From positions 210,816-274,815 of the forward strand of contig JAQUSN010000002.1 of the NCBI GenBank assembly GCA_028715115.1: a stretch of 64,000 bases of DNA, read 5' to 3'. Positions 3,288 to 49,843 of the stretch are shown here, in pieces; the stretch's first letter is position 1; the number at the start of each line of letters is the position of its first letter. Origin of the DNA: Patescibacteria group bacterium (GTDB taxonomy: Bacteria > Patescibacteriota > Patescibacteriia > UBA2591 > UBA4787). Position numbers and translations under genes: made by a program. The notes beneath the pieces were generated by a model. The model was not told the DNA's origin and did not search any database. It was given only the letters and a program-made list of their open reading frames with translations.

Positions 3288-5948
3288 TTACTTAGATGTA
3301 TGCTCTATTTTTAATTTTCTTTTAACCACCGCCTGCGCCGCGGCAATTCTGGCAATCGGTACGCGATATGGAGAACAGCTGACATAATTCATACCTGCTT
3401 CATAACAAAACCCTATGCTAGCTGAATCGCCCCCATGCTCGCCACAAATTCCAATTTTTAAACCTTTCTTTACGCTTCGTCCCTTATTAATGCCAATTTT
3501 TACCAATTGCCCTATTCCCTCCTGATCTAAAGATTGAAACGGATCGGCTGCAATAATTTTTTTATTTAAATAAACCTTTATAAACTTACCTGAATCGTCG
3601 CGTGAAAAACCCATCCCCATTTGCGTTAAATCATTAGTACCAAAAGAGAAAAAATCCGCTTCTTGGGCAATTTGATCGGCTGTTACCGCGGCTCGCGGGA
3701 CTTCAATCATGGTGCCAACCAAATATTCAATCTTAGTTTTATATTGCTTCATAACTTCGGCGGCGATTTTTTTAACCACGTCTTTTTGATTTTTAAGCTC
3801 GTTAACATTACCGACCAATGGAATCATTATTTCCGGAACAACCTTAATATTTTCTTTTTTTAATTCACAGGCTGCAGAAATAATAGCCCGAACTTGCATC
3901 TCGGTAATTTCCGGGTAGGTGATGCCGAGCCGGCAGCCGCGATGACCAAGCATCGGATTAAATTCGTGAAGCTCTTGCGCCTTTGCCCAAATCTTTTCTT
4001 CGGAAATTTTTATTTTTTCCGATAACTCTTTGGCTTCTTTTTGATCCTTTGGCAAAAATTCATGAAGCGGCGGATCAAGGGTGCGAACCGTCACCGGATA
4101 ACCTCTCATCTCTTTGAATAATTCCTTGAAATCTTCTTTTTGAAATGGCAATAATTTATTTAAAGCCGCTCGTCTGGTTTCTTCGGTATCGGCAATAATC
4201 ATCTCCTGTATGTACGGCAGTCTATCTTTGTCAAAAAACATATGTTCGGTTCGGCAGAGCCCAATGCCTTCAGCGCCAAATATTCGCGCCATTTTAGCAT
4301 CGCGCGGCATATCGGCATTGGCTCGTACCTTTAATTGCTTAATTTCATCAACCCATTTCATTAATTGACCAAATTCTCCGCTTAAAGTTGGTTGCACAGT
4401 AGCCACTTTTCCCAAAATAATTTGACCGGTATTGCCATCAAGCGTCAGCCAATCACCTTCATTAACGATATTTTTACCTAAATGAAATTTTTTATTTTTT
4501 TCATCGACTTTCAGTTCTTCACAACCCACCACGCAACAACGGCCCATGCCCCTGGCCACTACGGCCGCATGACTGGTCATACCGCCTCTGGCGGTTAACA
4601 CTCCTTGCGCCACTTCCATACCGTGAATATCATCGGGGCAAGTTTCGGTACGCACCAAAATTACCGGTTTATCTACGCCTAAGGCTGTTGCCTCTTCGGA
4701 ACTAAACACAACATGACCGACTGCCGCCCCTGGTGAAGCCGGCAAACCTCGTCCAATAGCTTGCGATTTAATTTTTGGATCTAAGATTGGATGTAATAAT
4801 TGATTAATTTGCTCCGGCTCAACGCGTAAAATAGCCACCTCTTTGGAAATCATTTTTTCTTTTACCATATCAACGGCATTTTTTATGGCCGCTCGCGCTG
4901 TTCTTTTACCAGTACGAGTTTGTAGAATATACAGTTTATTTTTTTCTACCGTAAATTCAAAGTCCTGCACGTCTTTATAATGTTTTTCTAAACGCTTAGT
5001 AATTGTTTTTAGTTGCCTATATACCAGCGGCATATCTTTGGCTAAACTGGCGATTGGCTGTGGCGTTCTAACTCCCGCCACCACATCTTCGCCCTGGGCA
5101 TTAATTAAATATTCTCCATAAAATTGATTTTCGCCCGTAGCCGGATTTCTTGTAAAACCGACGCCGGTTGCGCAATCGTTGCCCATATTTCCAAAAACCA
5201 TAACCTGAATATTAACGGCCGTTCCTAAATCATCGGATATTTTATTTAAACGGCGATAAGTCTGCGCCCGAGGATTGTTCCAACTTTTAAATACGGCATC
5301 GCGCGCCATTTTTAATTGCTGATACGCATCGACCGGTAAATCATGTTTAGTAATTTCTCTGATTAATTTTTTATACTGACTGATTATCTCTTTTAAATCA
5401 TCTTCCCTTAAATCAAAGTCGTATTTAATATTCCTTTTTTCTTTTATTTCTGTAAGGATTTCTTCGAATTGTTCTTTGGCTATTCCCAAAACCACATTAC
5501 CGAACATTTGAATAAACCGGCGATAAGTATCATAAACAAATCGAGGATTTTTCGTGGTTTTGATTAGATTTACCACATTCTCATCATTCAAACCCAAATT
5601 CAAAATCGTATCCATCATGCCGGGCATAGAAAATCTAGCGCCACTGCGGACTGAAACCAATAACGGGTTTTTACTATCGCCTAATTTTTTATTAACGCTT
5701 TTTTCTATTTTTTTAAGCGCAGATTTTATTTGTTTGTCCAGTTCAGATGGTAATTTATTATTATGATCATAAAAATAATTACAAACCTCGGTAGTAATCG
5801 TAAAACCAGGCGGCACCGGTACTCCAGCCTTGGCCATATCAGCTAACCCCGCGCCCTTGCCTCCCAACGTGTCTTTCATTGTTATATTACCTTCAGTTTC
5901 ACGATCGCCAAAATAATAAACCAATTTCTGCGTTCTTTTTTTTGCCAT
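3288..5948 (-). CDS. ppdK: Pyruvate, phosphate dikinase.
   Basis: 886 aa. N-terminal ATP-grasp region, central phosphohistidine domain (GGMTSHAAVVARGMG) and C-terminal PEP-utilizing TIM barrel. Confidence 0.9.
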   Translation of the reverse strand: MAKKRTQKLVYYFGDRETEGNITMKDTLGGKGAGLADMAKAGVPVPPGFTITTEVCNYFYDHNNKLPSELDKQIKSALKKIEKSVNKKLGDSKNPLLVSVRSGARFSMPGMMDTILNLGLNDENVVNLIKTTKNPRFVYDTYRRFIQMFGNVVLGIAKEQFEEILTEIKEKRNIKYDFDLREDDLKEIISQYKKLIREITKHDLPVDAYQQLKMARDAVFKSWNNPRAQTYRRLNKISDDLGTAVNIQVMVFGNMGNDCATGVGFTRNPATGENQFYGEYLINAQGEDVVAGVRTPQPIASLAKDMPLVYRQLKTITKRLEKHYKDVQDFEFTVEKNKLYILQTRTGKRTARAAIKNAVDMVKEKMISKEVAILRVEPEQINQLLHPILDPKIKSQAIGRGLPASPGAAVGHVVFSSEEATALGVDKPVILVRTETCPDDIHGMEVAQGVLTARGGMTSHAAVVARGMGRCCVVGCEELKVDEKNKKFHLGKNIVNEGDWLTLDGNTGQIILGKVATVQPTLSGEFGQLMKWVDEIKQLKVRANADMPRDAKMARIFGAEGIGLCRTEHMFFDKDRLPYIQEMIIADTEETRRAALNKLLPFQKEDFKELFKEMRGYPVTVRTLDPPLHEFLPKDQKEAKELSEKIKISEEKIWAKAQELHEFNPMLGHRGCRLGITYPEITEMQVRAIISAACELKKENIKVVPEIMIPLVGNVNELKNQKDVVKKIAAEVMKQYKTKIEYLVGTMIEVPRAAVTADQIAQEADFFSFGTNDLTQMGMGFSRDDSGKFIKVYLNKKIIAADPFQSLDQEGIGQLVKIGINKGRSVKKGLKIGICGEHGGDSASIGFCYEAGMNYVSCSPYRVPIARIAAAQAVVKRKLKIEHTSK

Positions 5949-19065: not shown

Positions 19066-20652
19066 TTATTGAATTTTTATTGGTTGCCCGTTTCGAGACT
19101 TATCTCTATAGATCGTAATACCTTTTAAATTTAAATCAATGGCCATTAATAAAATATTTTTTATTTCATCTACCGTGGTATCTTCGGAAACATTCACGGT
19201 TTTAGAAATTGATTCATCTACAAATTCCTGTATGGCTGATATTATTAACAACTGATCCTTCGGTGAGATCCTTAACATGTCACGAAAGAATGGTTCTATG
19301 GATTGAGAAGCCTTGATAATAAGGCACGACCGGCCGGTAGGAGGCAAAGAAACAGTGGCGCAATTTCTAATCCCGTGCTCCCTAATCTCTGCATCAAGAG
19401 CCAACCAACTGTCTCTAGAAACAGTTTCGGTTTCTTGACGAGAATATCTTCTAATAATACTATCATCTCCGACATACCTGGATTTTTCAAAATCACCAAA
19501 AGCCCCGCGCTCTAAAGCTAATTCTGATGATGTTTTTTTTGAAATATAATTTATAAAACTAAAAATATTTCTAGCCAACTCTATAGCCTCAGGACTAGCA
19601 TAATCAATTTTTAACTTGGCTAATAAATCTGCAAAGCCGCAAACCCCGAGGCCAATTTTCCTTTTTTTCTTTGCTATGTCCCTACTTGCATCACTTTCAT
19701 ATCGTGAAATATTATATTCAACAGTATCGTCAAGGAATCTCACCACCAATTCAATCGCTTGTTTTAGTCCATCATAATCAATTGAACCATCATTAACAAA
19801 TTGACCAAGATTAATATAGGAAAACTGGCATGTTTCTCCTTCGGCCAAGCCTACTTCTCCGCATGGTGCTAGTGATTTATATGCTCCGGCACTTGGCACC
19901 TGATTATCCCTATTCAATCGATCAACAAAAGACAATCCTGGCTCACCGCTAGTATATATAGATCTTGCCATCTGATCTATTATCTCCGTTGAAGAAACGG
20001 TGCGGCCATCCTTTGAAATAATTGGTTCGCCGTTTTTAATTTTATGAGCGCTGTCCTCGTCAACATTCACTGAAAAATTAAATATCCAAGGACGATTTTT
20101 ATGAGCATTCTTAATCTGAATAAAATCGGTTATTCTTGGATGAGTAATAGCTAAGGACCCCATATTCCCAACTGGTCTAAGCTGCTTATCACTTGCCTGT
20201 CCTTCGATTGCTATATTATTTAAATATTCAATAATTGGAGTTGGATCCTCAATATCATCAAAATTAAAACCCGTACCCATTCCACTATTATGTAAATTGT
20301 CTACAACCCTTTTAACCCTAGATAAATCGCCCCCAAGGTCAACTGACGGAACAATGCAAGCCGATAACGGCTCGTTTTTCATTCTTCCAGCATTCATTAA
20401 AATAGGCGTGCTGGGAATAAATTTTTTGTCTTTTAAAAGCTGAAAGATTTGGGCCTTAAACCGATCGACGCGCTCCTGATCCGAATAAATCGTTTCGACT
20501 TCTGCCACGGCATCTACCACTCGCTGGAAAATTCTCAAAATATTTTCGCCTTTTTCGGCAATACCGAATTTATACAAAGCCTCTTCGCTAATAAATCCTT
20601 CTGTTTCTTCTGAATGTTTTGGATTACTTGCTTCAAAGTGTTCTAGTGTCAT
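19066..20652 (-). CDS. nrdJ: Ribonucleotide reductase, class II (adenosylcobalamin-dependent)-like. The track ORF extends to 20724, but its first 24 codons lie in the dispersed repeat, so the start is more likely MTLEHF at about 20652.
   Basis: PSTPILMNAG, NSGMGTGFNF and APCGEVGLAEGETCQFSYINL motifs of the RNR catalytic barrel. Confidence 0.65.
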   Translation of the reverse strand: MTLEHFEASNPKHSEETEGFISEEALYKFGIAEKGENILRIFQRVVDAVAEVETIYSDQERVDRFKAQIFQLLKDKKFIPSTPILMNAGRMKNEPLSACIVPSVDLGGDLSRVKRVVDNLHNSGMGTGFNFDDIEDPTPIIEYLNNIAIEGQASDKQLRPVGNMGSLAITHPRITDFIQIKNAHKNRPWIFNFSVNVDEDSAHKIKNGEPIISKDGRTVSSTEIIDQMARSIYTSGEPGLSFVDRLNRDNQVPSAGAYKSLAPCGEVGLAEGETCQFSYINLGQFVNDGSIDYDGLKQAIELVVRFLDDTVEYNISRYESDASRDIAKKKRKIGLGVCGFADLLAKLKIDYASPEAIELARNIFSFINYISKKTSSELALERGAFGDFEKSRYVGDDSIIRRYSRQETETVSRDSWLALDAEIREHGIRNCATVSLPPTGRSCLIIKASQSIEPFFRDMLRISPKDQLLIISAIQEFVDESISKTVNVSEDTTVDEIKNILLMAIDLNLKGITIYRDKSRNGQPIKIQ

Positions 20653-20696
20653 TTGGTTAATGAAATTATTATAAAATAAAGTATTTAATTTTTTAT

Positions 20697-20760
20697 ATTT
20701 TGGGGTGGCTCCGCCATTCGCCAATCGGCGAAGGCAGATGCAAGAATGTTAGAACCTATT
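20697..20760 (+). repeat. Copy of the dispersed element (TTTTGGGGTGGCTCCGCC..GGCAGATGCAAGAATGTTAGAACCT).
   Basis: The left end TGGGGTGGCT equals the complement of the 3' end of tRNA-His at 29843. Contains the minigene ATGCAAGAATGTTAG. Confidence 0.5.
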
Positions 20761-24859: not shown

Positions 24860-24879
24860 ATTTTAATTATAAATAAAAA

Positions 24880-24963
24880 TTGCCCAAATGGCAATAGTTA
24901 TATAAAAACGGTCTGGGGTCACTCCGCCAGTTGGCGGATGCAAGAATGTTAGAACCTGTTGCT
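24880..24963 (+). repeat. Full-length copy of the dispersed element (CCAAATGGCAATAGTTATATAAAAACGGTCTGGGGTCACTCCGCCAGTTGGCGGATGCAAGAATGTTAGAACCTGTT).
   Basis: Shares both the AAATGGCAATAGTTATAATAAAAAC and the TCTGGGGT..TTAGAACCTGTT modules with the copies at 25785, 28198 and 29420. Confidence 0.55.
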
Positions 24964-25740: not shown

Positions 25741-25784
25741 AGTTTTTTTAGTTTTAATAAATCGACCTTTCGTTTATTCTATCA

Positions 25785-25858
25785 AAAAACCGCCTAAATG
25801 GCAATAGTTATAATAAAAACTTCTGGGGTGGTCTATTAGACACTATTAGAACCTGTTT
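25785..25858 (+). repeat. Copy of the dispersed element (AACCGCCTAAATGGCAATAGTTATAATAAAAACTTCTGGGGTGGTCTATTAGACACTATTAGAACCTGTT).
   Basis: As above. The central part is divergent. Confidence 0.5.
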
Positions 25859-27014: not shown

Positions 27015-27090
27015 AAAATCGCCTAATTAGCAACACTTTTTAGACTCAAGTCTTCTCTAGGTCCCTTATGCAAGGACGTTAGAACCCGGA
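27015..27090 (+). repeat. Copy of the dispersed element (..TCTCTAGGTCCCTTATGCAAGGACGTTAGAACCC). It is the left direct repeat of cassette h.
   Basis: 19 nt (27068-27086, ATGCAAGGACGTTAGAACC) identical to 27712-27730. Confidence 0.55.
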
Positions 27091-27698: not shown

Positions 27699-27735
27699 AA
27701 GGAGGTCACCTATGCAAGGACGTTAGAACCTGTTG
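27699..27735 (+). repeat. Copy of the dispersed element (AAGGAGGTCACCTATGCAAGGACGTTAGAACCTGTT). It is the right direct repeat of cassette h and contains an SD + ATG-CAA-GGA-CGT-TAG minigene.
   Basis: Identical 19-mer to the copy at 27068. Confidence 0.55.
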
Positions 27736-28175: not shown

Positions 28176-28197
28176 ATCATTTATTCTATCAAAGAAT

Positions 28198-28265
28198 TAC
28201 CAAATGGCAATAGTTATAATAAACCGATCTGGGGTCCCTTATGCAACTATTTTACTTAGAACTAG
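28198..28265 (+). repeat. Copy of the dispersed element (CCAAATGGCAATAGTTATAATAAACCGATCTGGGGTCCCTTATGCAACTATTTTACTTAGAACTAG).
   Basis: Both modules are present. The right end is divergent. Confidence 0.5.
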
Positions 28266-29419: not shown

Positions 29420-29463
29420 GCTCTTCTGGGGTCCCTTATGCAAGAACGTTAGAACCTGTTTGT
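29420..29463 (+). repeat. Copy of the dispersed element (CTCTTCTGGGGTCCCTTATGCAAGAACGTTAGAACCTGTT).
   Basis: Near-consensus right module with the ATGCAAGAACGTTAG minigene. Confidence 0.55.
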
Positions 29464-43627: not shown

Positions 43628-44044
43628 TTAAAATTCTTTACTCATATAATACCAATCGTGATTATAATAATAATCTAATAACACTGCATCTTTCTTATAT
43701 CCGCTCTTTTCATAAAACCTAATCGTATCTACGAAGACTGACGGTACTTTAATTACTGATTTCTTACAATTATTGTCGTTCGCCCATTTTTCAATATATT
43801 TAAGCAAATTAGTGCCAATACCCTTACCGGTTAATTCGTTTTTGACCAGGATATCTCTTATTTCGACCACGCCCCCTCTAAGTTCAACTTTAGCATAAGC
43901 TGATAAATTTTTATCAACATAAACTCCAAAGAAAAATGTTTCCTTTGGAGGCAAAAGATTATATTTTTTATTTATGACTTCCCATTCTTTGTCGAAAAAT
44001 TCTTTAATTTCCGTTGCATTAATTTGCTGTATTCGAATATCCAT
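43628..44044 (-). CDS. GNAT family N-acetyltransferase.
   Basis: Motif A (LTGKGIGTNLL) and a GNAT fold pattern. Confidence 0.7.
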   Translation of the reverse strand: MDIRIQQINATEIKEFFDKEWEVINKKYNLLPPKETFFFGVYVDKNLSAYAKVELRGGVVEIRDILVKNELTGKGIGTNLLKYIEKWANDNNCKKSVIKVPSVFVDTIRFYEKSGYKKDAVLLDYYYNHDWYYMSKEF

Positions 44045-44109
44045 TTCAATTAAATAAATTTATATCATTGGCAAAACTGCGAGGCTTGGATTCCCGGCCC
44101 AAGGCCGAT

Positions 44110-44203
44110 CGGAGTCTAATCTGGGAGACCTGGATTCGAACCAGGATAGACAGATCCAGAGTCTGCCGTCCTACCGTTAGACGATCTCCCAGATTAGACT
44201 CCG
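44110..44203. repeat. 19 nt inverted repeat (CGGAGTCTAATCTGGGAGA / TCTCCCAGATTAGACTCCG) enclosing tRNA-Gln. It extends the acceptor stem by 11 bp.
   Basis: The arms are perfect reverse complements, at 44110-44128 and 44185-44203. Confidence 0.6.
44121..44191 (-). tRNA. tRNA-Gln (anticodon CTG). No encoded CCA.
   Basis: U1:A72 and G73 as in bacterial tRNA-Gln. T arm CCTGG-TTCGAAT-CCAGG identical to E. coli tRNA-Gln. Anticodon loop CTCTGGA. Confidence 0.7.
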
Positions 44204-44212
44204 CTATACAAT

Positions 44213-44238
44213 ATTCTAACATTCTTAAGAATGTTAGA
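44213..44238. terminator. Perfect 26 nt palindrome TTCTAACATTCTT|AAGAATGTTAGAA, just downstream of the dnaX stop and upstream of tRNA-Gln.
   Basis: Perfect inverted repeat. It shares the 13-mer AAGAATGTTAGAA with the dispersed element. Confidence 0.45.
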
Positions 44239-44264
44239 ATATTATTTTATGAAAAAAATAAAGT

Positions 44265-45350
44265 TTATGAGCAAATTTTAATAACAGCCAGTTCTAGCGG
44301 CAGCTGAGGAATCTTGGCGTATGATAATTCTTGCTGCACGGAAATAAATTGTTCAATCATCAATATCAAAGCGTTCTGCTCAAATTTATTCGCAAAATCT
44401 CTTACTTTTTCTTGAACCTCATTGTCTAAATATTGTAAAATCCTTTCTTGATCAGCACCAACTTTAACTAATAAAACTTTTCGCAAAAATTCTATCAAAT
44501 CCTTGGTAAATTGTTCTAAATCAACGCCCTCTTCAAGTAATTTATTTATCAATCCTATCGCCTCTTTCTTATCTTTAGAGGCCAGTAATTTAACAAAATT
44601 AACTATTAGATTCAACTTAGTCGAAGGAATGACGAGTGACGCTTCTTCCATAGTAATTTCTTGGTCGTCAAATGTAAAAATCTGCGATAGCAAACTTTCG
44701 GCATCGCGCACACTGCCTTCAGAACGTTGGGCAATAATTTTTAAAACTTCTGACTCTATTTTAACCTTTTCACTTTTAGCGATTTTAGCCAAACGTTCGA
44801 CAATTTTATCTAAATCAACCTTGGTTAAATCAAATCTCTGGCAGCGCGAAATAATCGTATCTGGAACTTTATGGATTTCGGTCGTGGCTAAGATGAAAAT
44901 AATATATGACGGCGGCTCTTCCAGCGTCTTCAAGAGCGCGTTAAAGGCCGCGGTCGAAAGCATGTGAACTTCGTCGATGATAAAAATTTTATATTTTCCT
45001 CTCGATGGCGGCACGCGCGTGCCGGCGATAATGTTCTCGCGAACATTGTCCACGCCTGTTTGCGAAGCGGCATCCATTTCAATTAAATCAAAAAATTTAC
45101 CCTGCATTAATTCCAAACAATTGGAACATTTATTGCATGGCTCACTCTCGCCTTTCTTGCGATTCTCACAATTAACCGCTTTGGCCACTAAGCGCGCCAA
45201 GGTTGTTTTACCTAAACCTCGAGGACCGGTTAAAAGATAAGCATGAGCTAAGCGTTCTTGCTTAATCTCATTTTCCAAAGTTCTAATAACGTGTTCTTGG
45301 CCAATAACCTCGCTAAAGTTTTGTGGACGATATTTACGATAAATTACCAT
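44265..45350 (-). CDS. dnaX: DNA polymerase III subunit gamma/tau (short form).
   Basis: AAA+ clamp-loader motifs (LLTGPRGLGKTT, DEVHML, SRC-like) and a zinc module CNKCSNC. Confidence 0.85.
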   Translation of the reverse strand: MVIYRKYRPQNFSEVIGQEHVIRTLENEIKQERLAHAYLLTGPRGLGKTTLARLVAKAVNCENRKKGESEPCNKCSNCLELMQGKFFDLIEMDAASQTGVDNVRENIIAGTRVPPSRGKYKIFIIDEVHMLSTAAFNALLKTLEEPPSYIIFILATTEIHKVPDTIISRCQRFDLTKVDLDKIVERLAKIAKSEKVKIESEVLKIIAQRSEGSVRDAESLLSQIFTFDDQEITMEEASLVIPSTKLNLIVNFVKLLASKDKKEAIGLINKLLEEGVDLEQFTKDLIEFLRKVLLVKVGADQERILQYLDNEVQEKVRDFANKFEQNALILMIEQFISVQQELSYAKIPQLPLELAVIKICS

Positions 45351-45498: not shown

Positions 45499-46686
45499 TC
45501 AGTCACCGCTGCAGTTGGTACAATTACTGCAAAATGCTTTTGATTGATATCGACGACAAAGAGCGCAAACTTCGCAAGATTGAAGAGCGCGTTTATAAAC
45601 ACGGACTTCATCTTCTAGACCGTTGGAGTAATAACCACCTGAGTACGTTCCTATATTAGTGCTACTGCCGGTTATTAATGATCCTGAAACATTTTGCTGT
45701 GTTGTTTGCGAAGCATCAATATAGGCAGTCAATTTTGAACCGTTATAAGTAAAGCTTAAAAAATGCCAATTACCATCTGTCAAACCAGATCCCGAATTAA
45801 ATACTTGTCTACTCATCGTATTAGTAGTTACGCCGGTTCTAATCTGACCGCCAGAATCAGGAACGCTATTTTCGATTTGTGTACCTTGCATAAAAATAAT
45901 ATGATAACCACTTGCCGGGACTCCTAATCTTTTAAACCAACCAATCACAGATACATATTCAGGTGGGTTTACCGGATTAACCTTTACATAATTGCTTGTT
46001 CCATTAAAACTTAAACAATTGCCAGAGATACAATTTGATGTTTGCCAAGTCGGACCAGCTGCCGGGCAAGTACTAGCATCACACAATTGTCCGTTATTGG
46101 CATAGGCAGATGAATCATTAGCATCAGTTCCGCTGCCTTCATTAAAGTGCCAATCACCCACAATTGAGGTGTCTTGGTATTGCTGTTGGTTGGTCATAAT
46201 CTGATTTAAGGTCGTATTGGTCAAAGAGATTTGACTGGTTTGAGCTCCGGCAGATTTGTAGATCTCATAGTAGCTTGAAGCAGTGCCGTTGTCGCTTGAG
46301 GCAGAAGCGGTATCTCGTTCCAGATAGACAGCTAACTTGTAATTGATGCCAGTTGAATCAGAAATATAGTAATAGCAGTATTTGGAAGAATTGGGGTCAG
46401 TGGGCAAAGAAGAAAGATAGGTGGAATTAATCAGAGCAGTAATTAAAGGATTGTAAGGGTCTGAAGTACAACCTCCTGAAGCCCAAATGGGATAAACCCC
46501 ATTAGTATTAAGATAAAGATCAAGTGTTTTAGAGAATTGGTTTAAGTCCCCTATTCTTCGCACATCCCTGGCTTTGGCCGAAGCTGTAGAAACAGAGGTT
46601 AAGGCAATAGCTGAGAGAAGACCGATAATGGCGACTACGACCAGGAGTTCGATCAAGGTGAAGCTTCTGCGAGAACGGCTAGACAT
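45499..46686 (-). CDS. Type IV pilin-like protein (prepilin N-terminal methylation motif) with a C-terminal LamG/concanavalin-like domain.
   Basis: SFTLIELLVVVAIIGLL class III signal. A LamG-like region (DWHFNEGSG..NCLSFNG..) and a Cys-rich C-terminus. Confidence 0.7.
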   Translation of the reverse strand: MSSRSRRSFTLIELLVVVAIIGLLSAIALTSVSTASAKARDVRRIGDLNQFSKTLDLYLNTNGVYPIWASGGCTSDPYNPLITALINSTYLSSLPTDPNSSKYCYYYISDSTGINYKLAVYLERDTASASSDNGTASSYYEIYKSAGAQTSQISLTNTTLNQIMTNQQQYQDTSIVGDWHFNEGSGTDANDSSAYANNGQLCDASTCPAAGPTWQTSNCISGNCLSFNGTSNYVKVNPVNPPEYVSVIGWFKRLGVPASGYHIIFMQGTQIENSVPDSGGQIRTGVTTNTMSRQVFNSGSGLTDGNWHFLSFTYNGSKLTAYIDASQTTQQNVSGSLITGSSTNIGTYSGGYYSNGLEDEVRVYKRALQSCEVCALCRRYQSKAFCSNCTNCSGD

Positions 46687-46723
46687 AAAATTAAATTATG
46701 AACAAAATATCATATAATAATAT

Positions 46724-47260
46724 TTATATCACATATAGGTAGACTGGTTTGTCTTGCGGCGTGGGCCGAATAATTTTTATCGGCGTCAGAGCTTTAATTT
46801 GAAAACAAATAGAGACAACGCGTGTACCGGGCTTTAAATTAGATAATAATTTTGGTCCTAAACGATCCATCAAAGCCGGCATTAAAAAAAGCGCTACGGC
46901 GGTCGCGTCAGAATAATCGGCTTTTAAAATATCGCCACATCTAACTTGCGCTAATTTATCTAAACCTAAAAATTTAATTCGCCAATTAGCGTAGATACAC
47001 AACCACCAAACCAATTCAATGCCTCTTGCTTTAACGTGATATTTTTTAGCCGCTTCAATGGTTATTCGTCCGTCTCCACAGCCTAAATCGTAAAAAATAT
47101 CATTTGGCTGAAGTTCCAGCGCTTCAAGAGCTCGATCAATGTATTTTTTCATCAGCGGTATCCAAGGTGTGGCAAAACTAAGCCCAAGAAATAATAAAGA
47201 AAAAAATACAAAGGCTAGGAATAAAATTATTATCAGTAGAATCGTTAAAAAAATAAGCAT
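46724..47260 (-). CDS. Class I SAM-dependent methyltransferase with an N-terminal TM helix.
   Basis: Motif I DLGCGDGRITIEA. Confidence 0.6.
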   Translation of the reverse strand: MLIFLTILLIIILFLAFVFFSLLFLGLSFATPWIPLMKKYIDRALEALELQPNDIFYDLGCGDGRITIEAAKKYHVKARGIELVWWLCIYANWRIKFLGLDKLAQVRCGDILKADYSDATAVALFLMPALMDRLGPKLLSNLKPGTRVVSICFQIKALTPIKIIRPTPQDKPVYLYVI

Positions 47261-47263
47261 AGA

Positions 47264-49843
47264 TTAAAGCGTCGAAGTTGGAGTAGAAGCAGGACCGTAA
47301 TTAGGCGTAGTTGGTTTTTTGTCTAATTCAATTGCTTTGGCTCTTTCTAAAATTTCGCTCTCAACAACCGCTTTGGGTCGGCCGTATTTTAAGTGCGACA
47401 TTTCTTTTACTAACTTCGCCACTTCTTCGTTCCCTTTGCGCGGCGGCATGCCCAACATATTAAACGGCCTGACTGCTTCTTTATCAACCAGTAATTTCAC
47501 GTAAGCGTTAAATCGCTCAACATTAATTAAATCATATTCATTTAAAACGGGCGCAAATTGTTTAACCAAAACTTGCGCATCTTCAATGCCGATATTAAAA
47601 GCTATCATCGTGCCTACCGTGCCCAGCACCGCGTCGCGAATTGAAGTGTCGTTATTTTTTGTCAGCTGCCCCATATATTGATGGGCAATGGTCAGATCAA
47701 GTTTATATTTTCTCGCTTCGGACAAAATCACGCCAATCGTATCAGTGATAAAATTCTGGAACTCATCAATGTATAAATAAAAATCTCGGCGATTTTCTTC
47801 GGTGGTATCAGCGCGTGAAAACGCGGCCATAGTAATTTTACCAACGATAACTAAGCCCAAAAGATATGCATTCAGATCTCCCACCAAGCCTTTTGGCAAG
47901 GTTACCAGCACGATTTTGCCTTCGTCCATGGCCTTGCGGAAATTAAAAGCACTGGCCTGCTGGCCGATAATCGGCCGCATAATATCGTTAGAAATAAATT
48001 GATTCAACTTTGAAGTGATATAAGGAGTCATGTTGGAAAGAGCTGCTTCACCGCCAGCCTTCTCGGCTTCTTTAATCCAGAAATCGCGCACTACCGGATT
48101 GGTACAATGTTTTAATTTAAAATGGCGGAATTCAGGGTCGGCCATTACTTTGGGAATTTCCATTAGCGTCGAACCGGATTCGGGATGTTCCATAATCAAC
48201 AGCATGGCGTTACGCATATATTGTTCGAACATCGGGCCACCGGTTTGGCGCAAATCATAAAGCTTATCCATTATCTTAATCATTTCGTTAATCACAAAAG
48301 TTTTTTGTTCCGGATATTTTGAATCGTATTCAAGTAGATTCAAGCCCATCGGCCTATCAATATTGGCCGGATTAAAATAAATTACGTCCTCAGCTCGCTC
48401 TTTGGGAACGTTAGCTAAAATATTTTCCACTAAATCGCCATTCGGATCAATAACGCAAACGCCCTCGCCGTTTTCGATATCTTGAATGGCCATATTGGAG
48501 ATCAGGACGGATTTACCCACGCCGGTTTTACCGATTAGATATACATGTCGGCGGCGATCGTCGCGTTTAATGCGGATAATTTTTTCTTCTCCGCGATAAA
48601 TGTTTTTGCCTAAAATAATTCCTTCGGTCGGAATATTAACCGGCGCCGGAGCCTTCTTGGCTAAGAGCCACTGAATATTCGGCACTTCGGTAATTGATAA
48701 AGGAAAATGAAACAAACTGGTCAACTCTTCAGTATTTAAAACAAAACCGGTAGACGGAATAAAATCGCGATAAATAAAATTACGAACTACGTTAGCCGAG
48801 GCGCTGGTTGGCACGGCCTTAAAACCATTGCCATATTCATAACCGGTATACTGAGCAAAAGAATTTAAAATATTTTGCAAAGACATTTTAGCCGCATTTT
48901 TGTCCTGGCTGGCCACGACTATTCTAATATTAATATCAAGTCCTGCTTTCGAACTTTTTGCCTCTAAACCTTTGATTATCTCTTGCTCCATTGGTGAAAG
49001 CTGATGTGGCTTATTTATATCTTTTAACTGGTCTTTTTTGTTATCGGTGGCATAAAAACTTTTCACGAATTTCCAAACGCCGCCCTTTTTCTTGCTCATC
49101 ACTTCGCTCAACTTTTTTCCTTGCTGCATTTCAGTCGCAATCTTGGCGCCGACGCGATGCCACTCGGCATTAGCCGAACGCGCGACTATCTGAATAGCTG
49201 CCGAGCTGCCCTGCGGAATCTTTGATAAAGAAGTTAAAATGCCATTTAATGGATCATTTTCTAGCTGTTGGTAAGTTTTAATGGGAAAGGCCCATTTATT
49301 ACGAAGTTTGAGGTAGGCCGACTCGATTTGGGATTTAGAATCAAAAAGATTATAATCTTCAACTGTTTCGATTTGGGCGGCCGGATGTTGAGCATGAATT
49401 TGCTGTTCAACAAATTGCCTTAAAGATTTTGGCATCACGACGTAAAAACGGATCACGCCATCCTTGTTGATTACTATTTCAAAACTAATATGATCGTTAC
49501 GGCCCAAAAAATTTACCTTCAAACCGTGTTGAGCTTTTAATCCGCCGATATTAGCAAAAAAACCTTCCATCGGCGATAGCAAATCCTTGATTTGCTTTTG
49601 TTGTTTATTGTCGTCGCCACTCGATTCTTTGGGCACGGTGATTAATAAAACCACTTTGTCAAAAGCAGTCGAAAAACGGGCTATATTTTTTAAATAATTT
49701 TTTAATACAGCGAAAATAATTAAAAATAAAATAATAATTCCGATAAAAATTAAAAAATAAATGAAAAATCCGCCACTAAGCAATCCTATTCCTGCTTGTT
49801 GGGCGGTATTGAGATCTAAACTTGGCACTTGAAGATCATTCAT
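47264..49843 (-). CDS. Membrane-anchored P-loop ATPase of the type IV secretion/conjugation superfamily (VirD4/TraG- or VirB4-like, DUF87-like).
   Basis: N-terminal TM segment. Walker A LIGKTGVGKS followed by VIDPNGD. Walker B YLYIDEFQNF. An AHQYMGQL motif. Confidence 0.5.
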   Translation of the reverse strand: MNDLQVPSLDLNTAQQAGIGLLSGGFFIYFLIFIGIIILFLIIFAVLKNYLKNIARFSTAFDKVVLLITVPKESSGDDNKQQKQIKDLLSPMEGFFANIGGLKAQHGLKVNFLGRNDHISFEIVINKDGVIRFYVVMPKSLRQFVEQQIHAQHPAAQIETVEDYNLFDSKSQIESAYLKLRNKWAFPIKTYQQLENDPLNGILTSLSKIPQGSSAAIQIVARSANAEWHRVGAKIATEMQQGKKLSEVMSKKKGGVWKFVKSFYATDNKKDQLKDINKPHQLSPMEQEIIKGLEAKSSKAGLDINIRIVVASQDKNAAKMSLQNILNSFAQYTGYEYGNGFKAVPTSASANVVRNFIYRDFIPSTGFVLNTEELTSLFHFPLSITEVPNIQWLLAKKAPAPVNIPTEGIILGKNIYRGEEKIIRIKRDDRRRHVYLIGKTGVGKSVLISNMAIQDIENGEGVCVIDPNGDLVENILANVPKERAEDVIYFNPANIDRPMGLNLLEYDSKYPEQKTFVINEMIKIMDKLYDLRQTGGPMFEQYMRNAMLLIMEHPESGSTLMEIPKVMADPEFRHFKLKHCTNPVVRDFWIKEAEKAGGEAALSNMTPYITSKLNQFISNDIMRPIIGQQASAFNFRKAMDEGKIVLVTLPKGLVGDLNAYLLGLVIVGKITMAAFSRADTTEENRRDFYLYIDEFQNFITDTIGVILSEARKYKLDLTIAHQYMGQLTKNNDTSIRDAVLGTVGTMIAFNIGIEDAQVLVKQFAPVLNEYDLINVERFNAYVKLLVDKEAVRPFNMLGMPPRKGNEEVAKLVKEMSHLKYGRPKAVVESEILERAKAIELDKKPTTPNYGPASTPTSTL

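Follow-up and report, generated by a model that had tools for sequence, protein, structure and literature searches.

We analyzed a 64-kb stretch of the genome of a Patescibacteria bacterium (candidate phyla radiation, CPR), hereafter the window, which contains a tRNA-Gln(CUG) gene directly downstream of dnaX, enclosed by a long perfect inverted repeat. Nearly all genes of the window are carried on the minus strand. Read along that strand, the locus consists of dnaX, a perfect palindrome, 7 bases, a 12-nt arm, the tRNA-Gln gene, the complementary arm, 6 bases, a tRNA-like stump, and a GNAT acetyltransferase gene (43628–44044, minus strand). The dnaX gene (44265–45350, minus strand) encodes a short gamma/tau-type clamp-loader subunit of 361 amino acids (aa), compared to ~540 aa in Kuenenbacteria, with Pfam matches to DNA_pol3_delta2 (2.7e-44) and DNA_pol3_gamma3 and 100% identity to P0001, [quoted passage not shown].

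Anatomy of the stalked tRNA-Gln(CUG) gene

The tRNA gene spans 71 nt (44121–44191, minus strand) and belongs to Rfam family RF00005, whose model it covers in full (positions 1–71; 60.3 bits against a gathering score of 29; E = 1e-12), while the anticodon read by ARAGORN, ctg, gives it a glutamine identity. From the sequence, we placed its ends at U1 = 44191, A72 = 44122, and G73 = 44121, with no CCA encoded; the ARAGORN coordinates are off by one base because the helix is continuous. A repeat search recovered the perfect 19-nt inverted repeat that an earlier note on this DNA had described around the gene (CGGAGTCTAATCTGGGAGA / TCTCCCAGATTAGACTCCG, arms at 44110–44128 and 44185–44203, 100% complementary, about 56–57 nt spacer). 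This repeat is composed of the 7-bp acceptor stem, then a C(−1):G73 pair, then 11 further pairs, i.e., leader and trailer extend the acceptor stem by 12 bp; the earlier note had recognized the extension and counted 11 bp, having omitted the discriminator pair. The same search delimits this extension, or stalk, to a 5′ (leader) arm CGGAGTCTAATC (tRNA strand; 44192–44203, minus strand) and a 3′ (trailer) arm GATTAGACTCCG (44110–44121, minus strand), the first base of which is the discriminator G73.

The pre-tRNA region folds with a z-score of −8.2. The stalked repeat and the adjacent palindrome are the two longest perfect inverted repeats in the window (loop ≤100 nt), and both exceed the longest arm found in all 100 dinucleotide-preserving shuffles (16 nt, mean 13.7). 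The other two tRNAs of the window (His and Glu) show only weak, non-contiguous flank pairing. A consensus scan detected no minus-strand sigma-70-like promoter between dnaX and the tRNA, and hand-fitted −10/−35 elements were too weak to use, so that co-transcription, and with it a full-length stalk in the RNA, is likely. In one relative, L002 (L-numbers designate loci fetched from relatives), the tRNA begins ~20 nt after dnaX. The gene is probably the sole tRNA-Gln(CUG) gene of this reduced genome.

We give almost no credence to the possibility that the repeat is a fold-back chimera created by assembly, or a terminator hairpin. Logan contigs from three sequencing runs do stop in the adjacent palindrome and hence leave the tRNA uncovered. 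However, a second, independent metagenome-assembled genome (MAG; L005, GCA_028713815.1) agrees base for base across the tRNA locus, with 2 single-nucleotide polymorphisms (SNPs) elsewhere over 7 kb, which makes an artefact unlikely; the enclosed tRNA is intact, and analogous structures at other loci were reproduced in independent assemblies. As for a terminator, the stalk has no following U-tract, which leads us to reject this reading, and a terminator scan flagged the palindrome alone, on the plus strand.

Just beyond the trailer arm lies the decayed 3′ remnant of a second tRNA-Gln, of the type resident in relatives (44077–44103, minus strand; CTTGG-GCCGGGAAT-CCAAG-CCTCGCA-G), in which the T-stem strands CTTGG and CCAAG enclose an altered T-loop, GCCGGGAAT, and are followed by the acceptor 3′ strand CCTCGCA and the discriminator G. 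In the repeat search, it forms a direct repeat with the 3′ end of the functional tRNA (80% over 20 nt), the two 3′ ends starting 44 nt apart with no element between them. Its last 17 nt (GAATCCAAGCCTCGCAG) match the 3′ end of the functional tRNA-Gln at 17/17 positions in L167 and at 16/17 in L002 and L010, and CCTCGCA is the exact complement of TGCGAGG in an orphan 5′ tRNA fragment of L009. These matches to resident-type 3′ ends indicate that a resident-type tRNA-Gln once stood here and has since been displaced. An anticodon-arm-like stretch next to it, AGACTCCGATCGG (44105–44117), may be part of the same remnant.

Broken and nested tRNA-Gln genes in relatives

Next, we compared the dnaX loci of relatives together with 80 further metagenome loci. 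The order dnaX then tRNA-Gln was kept in most of about 85 related loci; the tRNA itself was not conserved. Of the relatives, L001 (DnaX 86% identical) carries a different tRNA-Gln with an encoded CCA and the palindrome before it, L010 (75%) a resident-type TGCGGGG...CCCCGCAG gene, L002 (73%) a resident-type gene with an encoded CCA, L009 (72%) an orphan 5′ fragment, TGCGAGGTCGTCTAATGGAAAG, then yet another tRNA-Gln, and L003/L004 (65%) another tRNA-Gln variant; L213 was left out as its contig ends before the tRNA. None of these five nearest relatives with a readable tRNA-Gln (DnaX 65–86%) has a stalk. By the refuting condition that the earlier note had itself set (related genomes lacking the extended repeat), the processing signal it suggested is not a conserved one, and nothing points to the permuted tRNA it mentioned, the gene being colinear and complete. 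Its third suggestion, an excised element, fared better: the extension is tied to an inserted or replaced element and not to ordinary tRNA biology. A scan of a genome collection with the tRNA 3′ end proved too general, since this acceptor sequence is common to the tRNA-Gln of many phyla; it returned no close relatives, served as a background set, and turned up L106. In L001 (5258–5330), L009 (4287–4339), and the contig end of L177, one flank, CCAATTTGTAAAG, recurs behind three tRNA-Gln bodies that differ from each other, and G+C-rich hairpins (CCCGCCTCGCTCGGGCGGG) come next. No Rfam match was found for this region; downstream of the tRNA, it may represent a structured element that is conserved, or mark where an element ends.

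To place the stalk among other tRNAs, leader–trailer pairing contiguous with the acceptor stem was measured for every tRNA in all fetched loci. The perfect extension was ≤3 bp in 218 of 222 tRNAs, and the contiguous helix, including the acceptor stem and with G·U allowed, was ≤11 bp in 220 of 226. Longer helices were found in the window and L005 (21 bp), L214 (23 bp), L106 (19 bp), L153 (16 bp), and L010 (14 bp, with 2 G·U); the last, in which an A/T-rich leader pairs with a T-run, was not counted as a stalk. Beyond the acceptor stem, the stalks amount to a perfect 12 bp in the window and L005, 10 bp then 5 more past a mismatch in L106, 8 bp then 4 more in L153, 15 bp including 2 U·G in L214, and 1 + 13 + 6 bp in L136 (one A·C mismatch, a 2-nt bulge, and 3 G·U). 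Five lineages among the 226 tRNAs examined thus carry a comparable helix, which bears out the earlier remark that such an extension is unusual. Leader–trailer duplex energies ranged from −20 to −35 kcal/mol for the stalks, compared to a median of −6. The five stalks are unrelated in sequence, yet all start with C(−1):G73, none accompanies an encoded CCA, and all lie beside a displaced piece of tRNA-Gln. Overall, stalks were present at 5 of about 10 loci with displaced tRNA-Gln pieces compared to 0 among the other ~215 tRNAs, including ~65 Patescibacteria tRNA-Gln at this locus.

Two other forms of flank pairing were seen in the survey. Some GC-rich tandem tRNA-Gln pairs in Anaerolineae MAGs (L125, L081, L053, L070, L090, L109, and L080) show a conserved offset leader–trailer pairing (GCCGCCA / TGGCGG), and a CPR tRNA-Ser(GGA) in L190 (779–868) has an 18-bp helix offset by a few bases from the tRNA ends. 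Flank pairing as such is therefore not unique, whereas long helices contiguous with the acceptor stem are.

The displaced pieces themselves fall into two arrangements, distinguished by a tRNA-Gln profile search and direct reading. In the first (class A), a 5′ piece of tRNA-Gln comes directly after dnaX, and then a small open reading frame (ORF) and a complete tRNA-Gln. The fragment is broken at the D-loop (about positions 21–30) or the T-loop, often with G+C-rich hairpins inserted. The ORF encodes a GIY-YIG protein in L106, L132, L157, L159, L167, L169, and L215/L216 (Pfam PF01541 confirmed for L106, L132, L157, L169, and L215, and recorded for L215/L216; L159 and L167 by homology only), and all eight GIY-YIG ORFs at these loci, including that of L058, which lies downstream of the tRNA, are mutually 30–76% identical. 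A LAGLIDADG ORF (PF14528) occupies the same position in L187, while L009 is degenerate and retains only the last codons of that ORF. The first 21 nt of the complete gene in L215 recur unchanged as the fragment, as one would expect of an insert that regenerates the sequence it has displaced.

In the second arrangement (class B), a complete tRNA-Gln is nested in, or lies just upstream of, the pieces of another. In L136 (Kuenenbacteria), an outer tRNA-Gln with its four stems intact has its T-loop split by a 119-nt insert, in which an inner TGGGAGA-type tRNA-Gln is preceded by 28 nt and followed by 20 nt; the same nesting is present, with 1 SNP, in an independent assembly, L221. In both (L136 4162–4350), inner and outer genes are tRNA-Gln(CTG), and the inner one stands on a ~20-bp stalk inside the T-loop of the outer one. 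Either this insertion is very recent, or the outer gene would still be under constraint. Further nested cases were found in L153 and L106, and in L214 the outer gene is represented by a 3′ part, with hairpins in the T-loop, that lies behind the inner gene.

The G+C-rich hairpins are inserted at fixed points of the tRNA-Gln fragments: in the T-loop at TTCG|AATCC (L132 2296–2336, L214 3826–3865, and L217 ~3675–3699), and in the D-loop after TAATGGTAG (L153, L157, L159, L167, L169, L106, L163, and L215). L214 and L217 share the hairpin loop TCGGATGA, with compensatory changes in the stem, L159 holds tandem copies of a ~44-nt unit, and L106, L163, and L215 carry the same two hairpins despite distant hosts. 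Rfam scans of the window region, L106, L001, L009, and L010 found only tRNA and no group I intron, and the window tRNA is uninterrupted; weak matches to miRNA models in these scans were dismissed as generic hairpin noise. A phage origin was also dropped, the one viral contig having an unrelated tRNA array without a stalk.

From these relatives, we defined a class of “nuclease-associated tRNA-Gln replacement loci”. The window has a complete tRNA-Gln downstream of dnaX next to a displaced tRNA-Gln fragment; it has no nuclease gene between fragment and tRNA, and no room for one between dnaX and the tRNA. With no nuclease ORF, the window can at most be a degenerate member of the class, and its own invasion is inferred from the remnant and from the relatives.

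Origin and processing of the stalk

We consider it somewhat more likely than not that the window gene is a replacement tRNA-Gln(CUG) at a recurrently invaded locus, and that its stalk arose by templated inverted duplication. Under this scenario, the window gene would be a working replacement copy directly downstream of dnaX, at a locus where the resident tRNA-Gln of Patescibacteria is repeatedly interrupted by mobile insertions, each of which leaves or supplies a complete tRNA-Gln. Here, the nuclease gene would since have been lost, and the replacement tRNA with its 12-bp stalk would have stayed behind together with the 3′ stump of its predecessor. The stalk itself would have formed at the DNA level, the 7-bp repeat of the acceptor stem seeding an inverted copying of the trailer into the leader during break repair or replication, i.e., a quasipalindrome-type template switch. 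A templated duplication seeded by the acceptor stem would account for the exact start of the repeat at the tRNA ends, for its perfection in young cases, for a sequence specific to each lineage, and for the clustering of stalks where the gene has been repeatedly broken and repaired. The perfect pairing of the window stalk, and the lack of one in the nearest relatives, make a young age probable. We read the feature as one case, probably a young and degenerate one, of an arrangement that recurs at the tRNA-Gln locus of Patescibacteria and is apparently undescribed; we found no account of it in the literature searched. The anatomy of the locus, the remnant, the lack of a stalk in the relatives, the repeated invasion, and the confinement of stalks to invaded loci are observed, while the order of events, the template switch, and any role in the RNA are inferred.

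The direction of copying can be examined in L214. Compared with the leaders of L215 and L217 (..ATTGT|TCGGGG), its 5′ arm is an insertion of 16 nt, and its 3′ arm is homologous to the trailer that still follows the tRNA remnant in L217. The insertion and the older trailer in L217 together indicate that L214 acquired its 5′ arm as an inverted copy of a trailer already in place. In the window, the 3′ arm overlaps AGACTCCGATCGG, the stretch resembling the anticodon arm of the displaced tRNA, and the leader differs from that of L001; the overlap points in the same direction as L214, without amounting to proof.

Several observations weigh against this scenario. The remnant aligns to positions 55–71 of the tRNA-Gln profile with an E value (nhmmer, E = 6.3) that is non-significant alone. 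A tblastn search of the window with 9 locus-associated nucleases returned nothing below E = 0.1, and the small GIY-YIG proteins of the relatives consist of the catalytic domain only, their homing activity being assumed. The D and anticodon arms of the window tRNA resemble the resident type of L002, and an internal partial duplication followed by divergence, instead of a foreign copy, is possible from the sequences. The window tRNA and the remnant type differ at three stem base pairs only (3–70, 7–66, and 50–64), and tRNA sequence similarity, tried as a test of origin, did not separate foreign from native. Finally, 3′ remnants without stalks exist in L203, L204, L137, and L179, so the association is one-way: stalks occur only at invaded loci, and at roughly half of those with 3′ remnants.

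Some of these points would also suit an ordinary tRNA gene hit by a quasipalindrome mutation, by chance or neutrally and unconnected with any invasion; the stump would then stem from an old tandem duplication that has nothing to do with it. Template switches that turn short inverted repeats into perfect ones are a known mutational class (Ripley; Lovett), the tRNA body resembles the resident type of the clade, and no nuclease gene lies nearby. However, no such helix was found outside the tRNA-Gln loci that carry displaced tRNA-Gln pieces, and we rate this reading as improbable. Known quasipalindrome template switches do resemble the proposed event in that a short imperfect inverted repeat, here the acceptor stem, is extended to a longer perfect one by copying of the flank. 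They differ in that the mechanism is here deduced from end products, the 57-nt spacer is long for an event of this kind, and the link to nuclease breaks is speculative.

Less probable still is that the arms are the terminal inverted repeats of a tRNA-carrying element, similar to a miniature inverted-repeat transposable element (MITE), inserted between dnaX and the old tRNA. Perfect terminal repeats do flank a 71-nt cargo, and in L136/L221 a tRNA with its stalk forms a discrete insert inside another tRNA. Yet there is no target-site duplication (flanks GTATAG / ATCGGC) and no second copy of the arms in the window, so that the locus does not qualify as a terminal-inverted-repeat transposon or MITE; the repeats start exactly at the tRNA ends; and recognition by a transposase is hard to reconcile with arms that have unrelated sequences in the five lineages.

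The strongest competitor, although we still deem it unlikely, is a stalk that serves as a dedicated pre-tRNA processing signal under selection, cut by RNase III to free the tRNA from the dnaX read-through transcript, and that could in addition insulate the folding of the tRNA from the adjacent homologous stump. A 19-bp helix with a stacked T-stem approaches the length that RNase III needs; with its stackable 5-bp T-stem, the helix seen here is borderline against the roughly two turns of an RNase III substrate. Precedents exist in the leader–trailer helices of rRNA (PMC10250234) and in intervening sequences (IVS; PMC11270868). Furthermore, five lineages keep the pairing with wholly different sequences, the failure to find a promoter between dnaX and the tRNA makes transcription of the whole stalk probable, and substitutions in the older stalks tend to be wobble-compatible (L214 2/2 and L136 3/4). 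This last bias hints at a constraint on the RNA, as opposed to a neutral scar, and so also counts against the favored scenario; with 5/6 in total it is, however, not significant (about p = 0.1). Against a dedicated signal, the stalk is absent from the five closest readable relatives and from about 70 other Patescibacteria tRNA-Gln at this locus, and is hence no general requirement, and its perfect 12 bp suggest youth instead of long maintenance.

Whatever its origin, the stalk would clamp both ends of the pre-tRNA once transcribed. Maturation would have to cut at +1 and after G73 and then add CCA, with the helix either opened or cut first (e.g., by RNase III) or merely tolerated by the enzyme. 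For E. coli RNase P, kcat/Km already falls with two leader–RCCA pairs, and the enzyme has to unwind an extended acceptor helix (PMC9433436); a 12-bp extension should thus hinder canonical RNase P and not be innocuous. These substrates, like the MALAT1 mascRNA precursor, in which a leader–trailer interaction extends the acceptor stem and affects end processing (PMC8457004), are the nearest parallels for an extended acceptor stem with consequences for end processing, but flank pairing known from bacterial pre-tRNAs involves 1–3 pairs compared to the 12 perfect pairs found here. RNase III-cut rRNA leader–trailer helices and the IVS of 23S rRNA share a long helix with a stable RNA at its tip. They have not been described for bacterial tRNAs, where such cleavage would be hypothetical; in addition, the stalk is contiguous with the acceptor stem, which puts the RNase P and RNase Z sites inside the helix. 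Archaeal split, permuted, or bulge-helix-bulge intron tRNAs also rely on flanking complementary sequences, there to bring tRNA pieces together, while the present helix is a continuous, perfect 19 bp without bulges around a colinear and complete gene, and does not belong with them.

At the DNA level, the closest systems are homing-endonuclease genes in stable-RNA genes. CPR rRNA genes contain insertions that carry GIY-YIG ORFs and are not group I or II introns (PMC11270868), group I introns interrupt tRNA anticodon loops in Patescibacteria (PMC13011429, where Gln, GIY-YIG, and the T-loop are not mentioned), and phage T4 has SegB in a tRNA cluster (PMC13096335). The same nuclease families occur in or beside an essential RNA gene, in the same phylum. 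The loci described here differ in their target, tRNA-Gln, in their breaks, located in the D-loop, T-loop, or anticodon-loop region, and in the absence of a detected intron ribozyme; the damage is apparently offset by a second complete tRNA instead of splicing, and the window itself lacks a nuclease gene. Integration sites in tRNA genes (attL/attR) likewise combine a complete tRNA with a displaced part of it close by, and they too are recombination hot spots. However, the duplicated part in the relatives is often the 5′ end and not the 3′ end, no integrase was seen, and the gene here is flanked by inverted and not direct repeats.

Beyond the replacement at a recurrently invaded locus that we favor, a more far-reaching version would make the stalked tRNA the core of an undescribed mobile-element lifestyle inside an essential RNA gene, with the insert carrying a complete stalked tRNA-Gln, i.e., “self-replacement” in lieu of self-splicing. 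The tRNA-processing enzymes or RNase III would then cut the stalk from the host transcript, and the supply of tRNA-Gln would be kept even as the resident gene is destroyed. With the four stems of the outer tRNA intact in L136/L221, the insert there could even act as a tRNA-shaped intervening sequence. We regard this extension as doubtful.

The adjacent palindrome and the meaning of the locus

Between dnaX and the stalk lies a perfect 34-bp palindrome, AATATTCTAACATTCTT|AAGAATGTTAGAATATT (44210–44243, 17 + 17 nt with zero spacer in the repeat search). The earlier note had reported a 26-nt palindrome, which is real and understated in length, its 13 + 13 nt (44214–44239) lying within the 17 + 17 nt. 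Also upheld was the proposed identity of its half-site with the core of a dispersed element: the palindrome consists of two inverted copies of the 13-nt core of that element. This 13-mer, AAGAATGTTAGAA, has exactly 4 copies in the window (both palindrome arms, 20742, and 24942) and none in 100 shuffles, with near-copies at 27072, 27716, and 29442 (1–2 mismatches).

Unlike the stalk, the palindrome passes the test of the earlier note: it recurs at the same place in L001, downstream of dnaX, as ACATTCCAACATTCTTGAGAATGTTGGAATGT, with symmetric substitutions (TTCTAAC to TTCCAAC and GTTAGAA to GTTGGAA, i.e., a matching change in both arms), and L001 has a second copy 400 nt further on (about L001 5548–5580). 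In L212 (81% DnaX), the contig terminates in the first bases of the palindrome, and Logan contigs L006–L008, from three runs, all break 13 nt past its center. Short-read contigs from four data sets (L006, L007, L008, and L212) thus all stop inside the palindrome. As k-mer assemblies break at perfect palindromes this long, public contigs systematically under-represent such sites. In the scenario favored above for the stalk, the palindrome would be a separate feature of the clade, older than the stalk.

We consider two roles for the palindrome: a site bound by a dimeric protein, or an RNA hairpin that closes the dnaX message. The symmetry kept across genomes fits both, while the single core copies favor the DNA-binding site, and the zero-spacer perfect hairpin and probable read-through favor the RNA hairpin. 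Other identities were discarded. No minus-strand terminator was found at 43950–44400, the palindrome being flagged on the plus strand only, with 3 G–C pairs; TTCTAAC and GTTAGAA are each one base off the integron attC consensus (RYYYAAC / GTTRRRY), and no extrahelical bases are present; and Xer/dif sites and LexA or NrdR boxes were dropped on sequence grounds.

On the coding strand, single core copies read AACAGGTTCTAACRTYCTTGCAT..GGGACCCCAGA. No inverted partner was found within 250 nt of the dispersed copies. Those preceding minus-strand genes lie ~45 nt upstream of good sigma-70-like promoters, in a low-GC stretch at 20–30 kb near tRNA-His, while the copy at 27716 is followed by a terminator-like hairpin and no promoter. 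The dispersed module as a whole is ~100 nt long, with copies at 20730–20760, 24863–24960, 25773–25857, 27055–27090, 27704–27734, 28179–28246, and 29425–29460, all in this 31–32% GC stretch beside tRNA-His. On the minus strand, the core AACAGGTTCTAACRTYCTTGCAT comes first and GGGACCCCAGA after it, in some copies with a G+C hairpin between them that shows compensatory changes; a sigma-70-like promoter (TTGCCA-16/17-TATAAT or TAGAAT) and then a gene follow. In two copies, the upstream ORF ends inside the core (..RF*). The module has the look of a promoter or boundary unit that acquired gene cassettes have in common. A ribonucleotide reductase large-subunit ORF (19066–20724) is only 552 aa long, with a putative TTG start 18 nt downstream of a dispersed-core copy, and may be truncated.

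On the plus strand, the core contains a tiny ORF, ATG CAA GRA YGT TAG (M-Q-E/G-C/R-stop), conserved across copies (27060–27090, 27704–27734, and 29430–29460) and preceded in some by a AAGGAGGT- or GGGGT-type ribosome-binding site; it is probably coincidental, and we found neither a mini-ORF nor a hairpin reading of the dispersed element convincing. Each palindrome arm can also be read as two 8-nt units (TTCTAACA and TTCTTAAG). About 6 tandem copies of the unit TTCTAACA occur in L134 (~5290–5350), and the leader of L147 (3604–3628) has CTAACATCCAACATCTAA just upstream of tRNA-Gln, which suggests an iteron-like binding motif common to the clade.

Upstream of dnaX (45499–49843), the window encodes a pilin-like protein (N-terminal methylation motif and Laminin_G_3), a DOT1-like methyltransferase, and a VirD4/TrwB-like coupling ATPase, whose homologues in relatives carry a DUF8128 match. 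The order of ATPase, methyltransferase, and dnaX is kept in relatives, the pilin-like gene between methyltransferase and dnaX being seen only in this genome.

Taken together, a stalk on what is probably the sole tRNA-Gln(CUG) gene of a reduced genome is informative as to how CPR bacteria process their tRNAs. The locus also represents a recurrent, phylum-wide conflict between nuclease-encoding insertions and one tRNA gene, resolved, in the cases seen, by carrying or regenerating a replacement tRNA, and sometimes by nesting one tRNA within another. For genome annotation, it also matters that tRNA finders report the inner gene only, while fragments and nested outer genes are missed.

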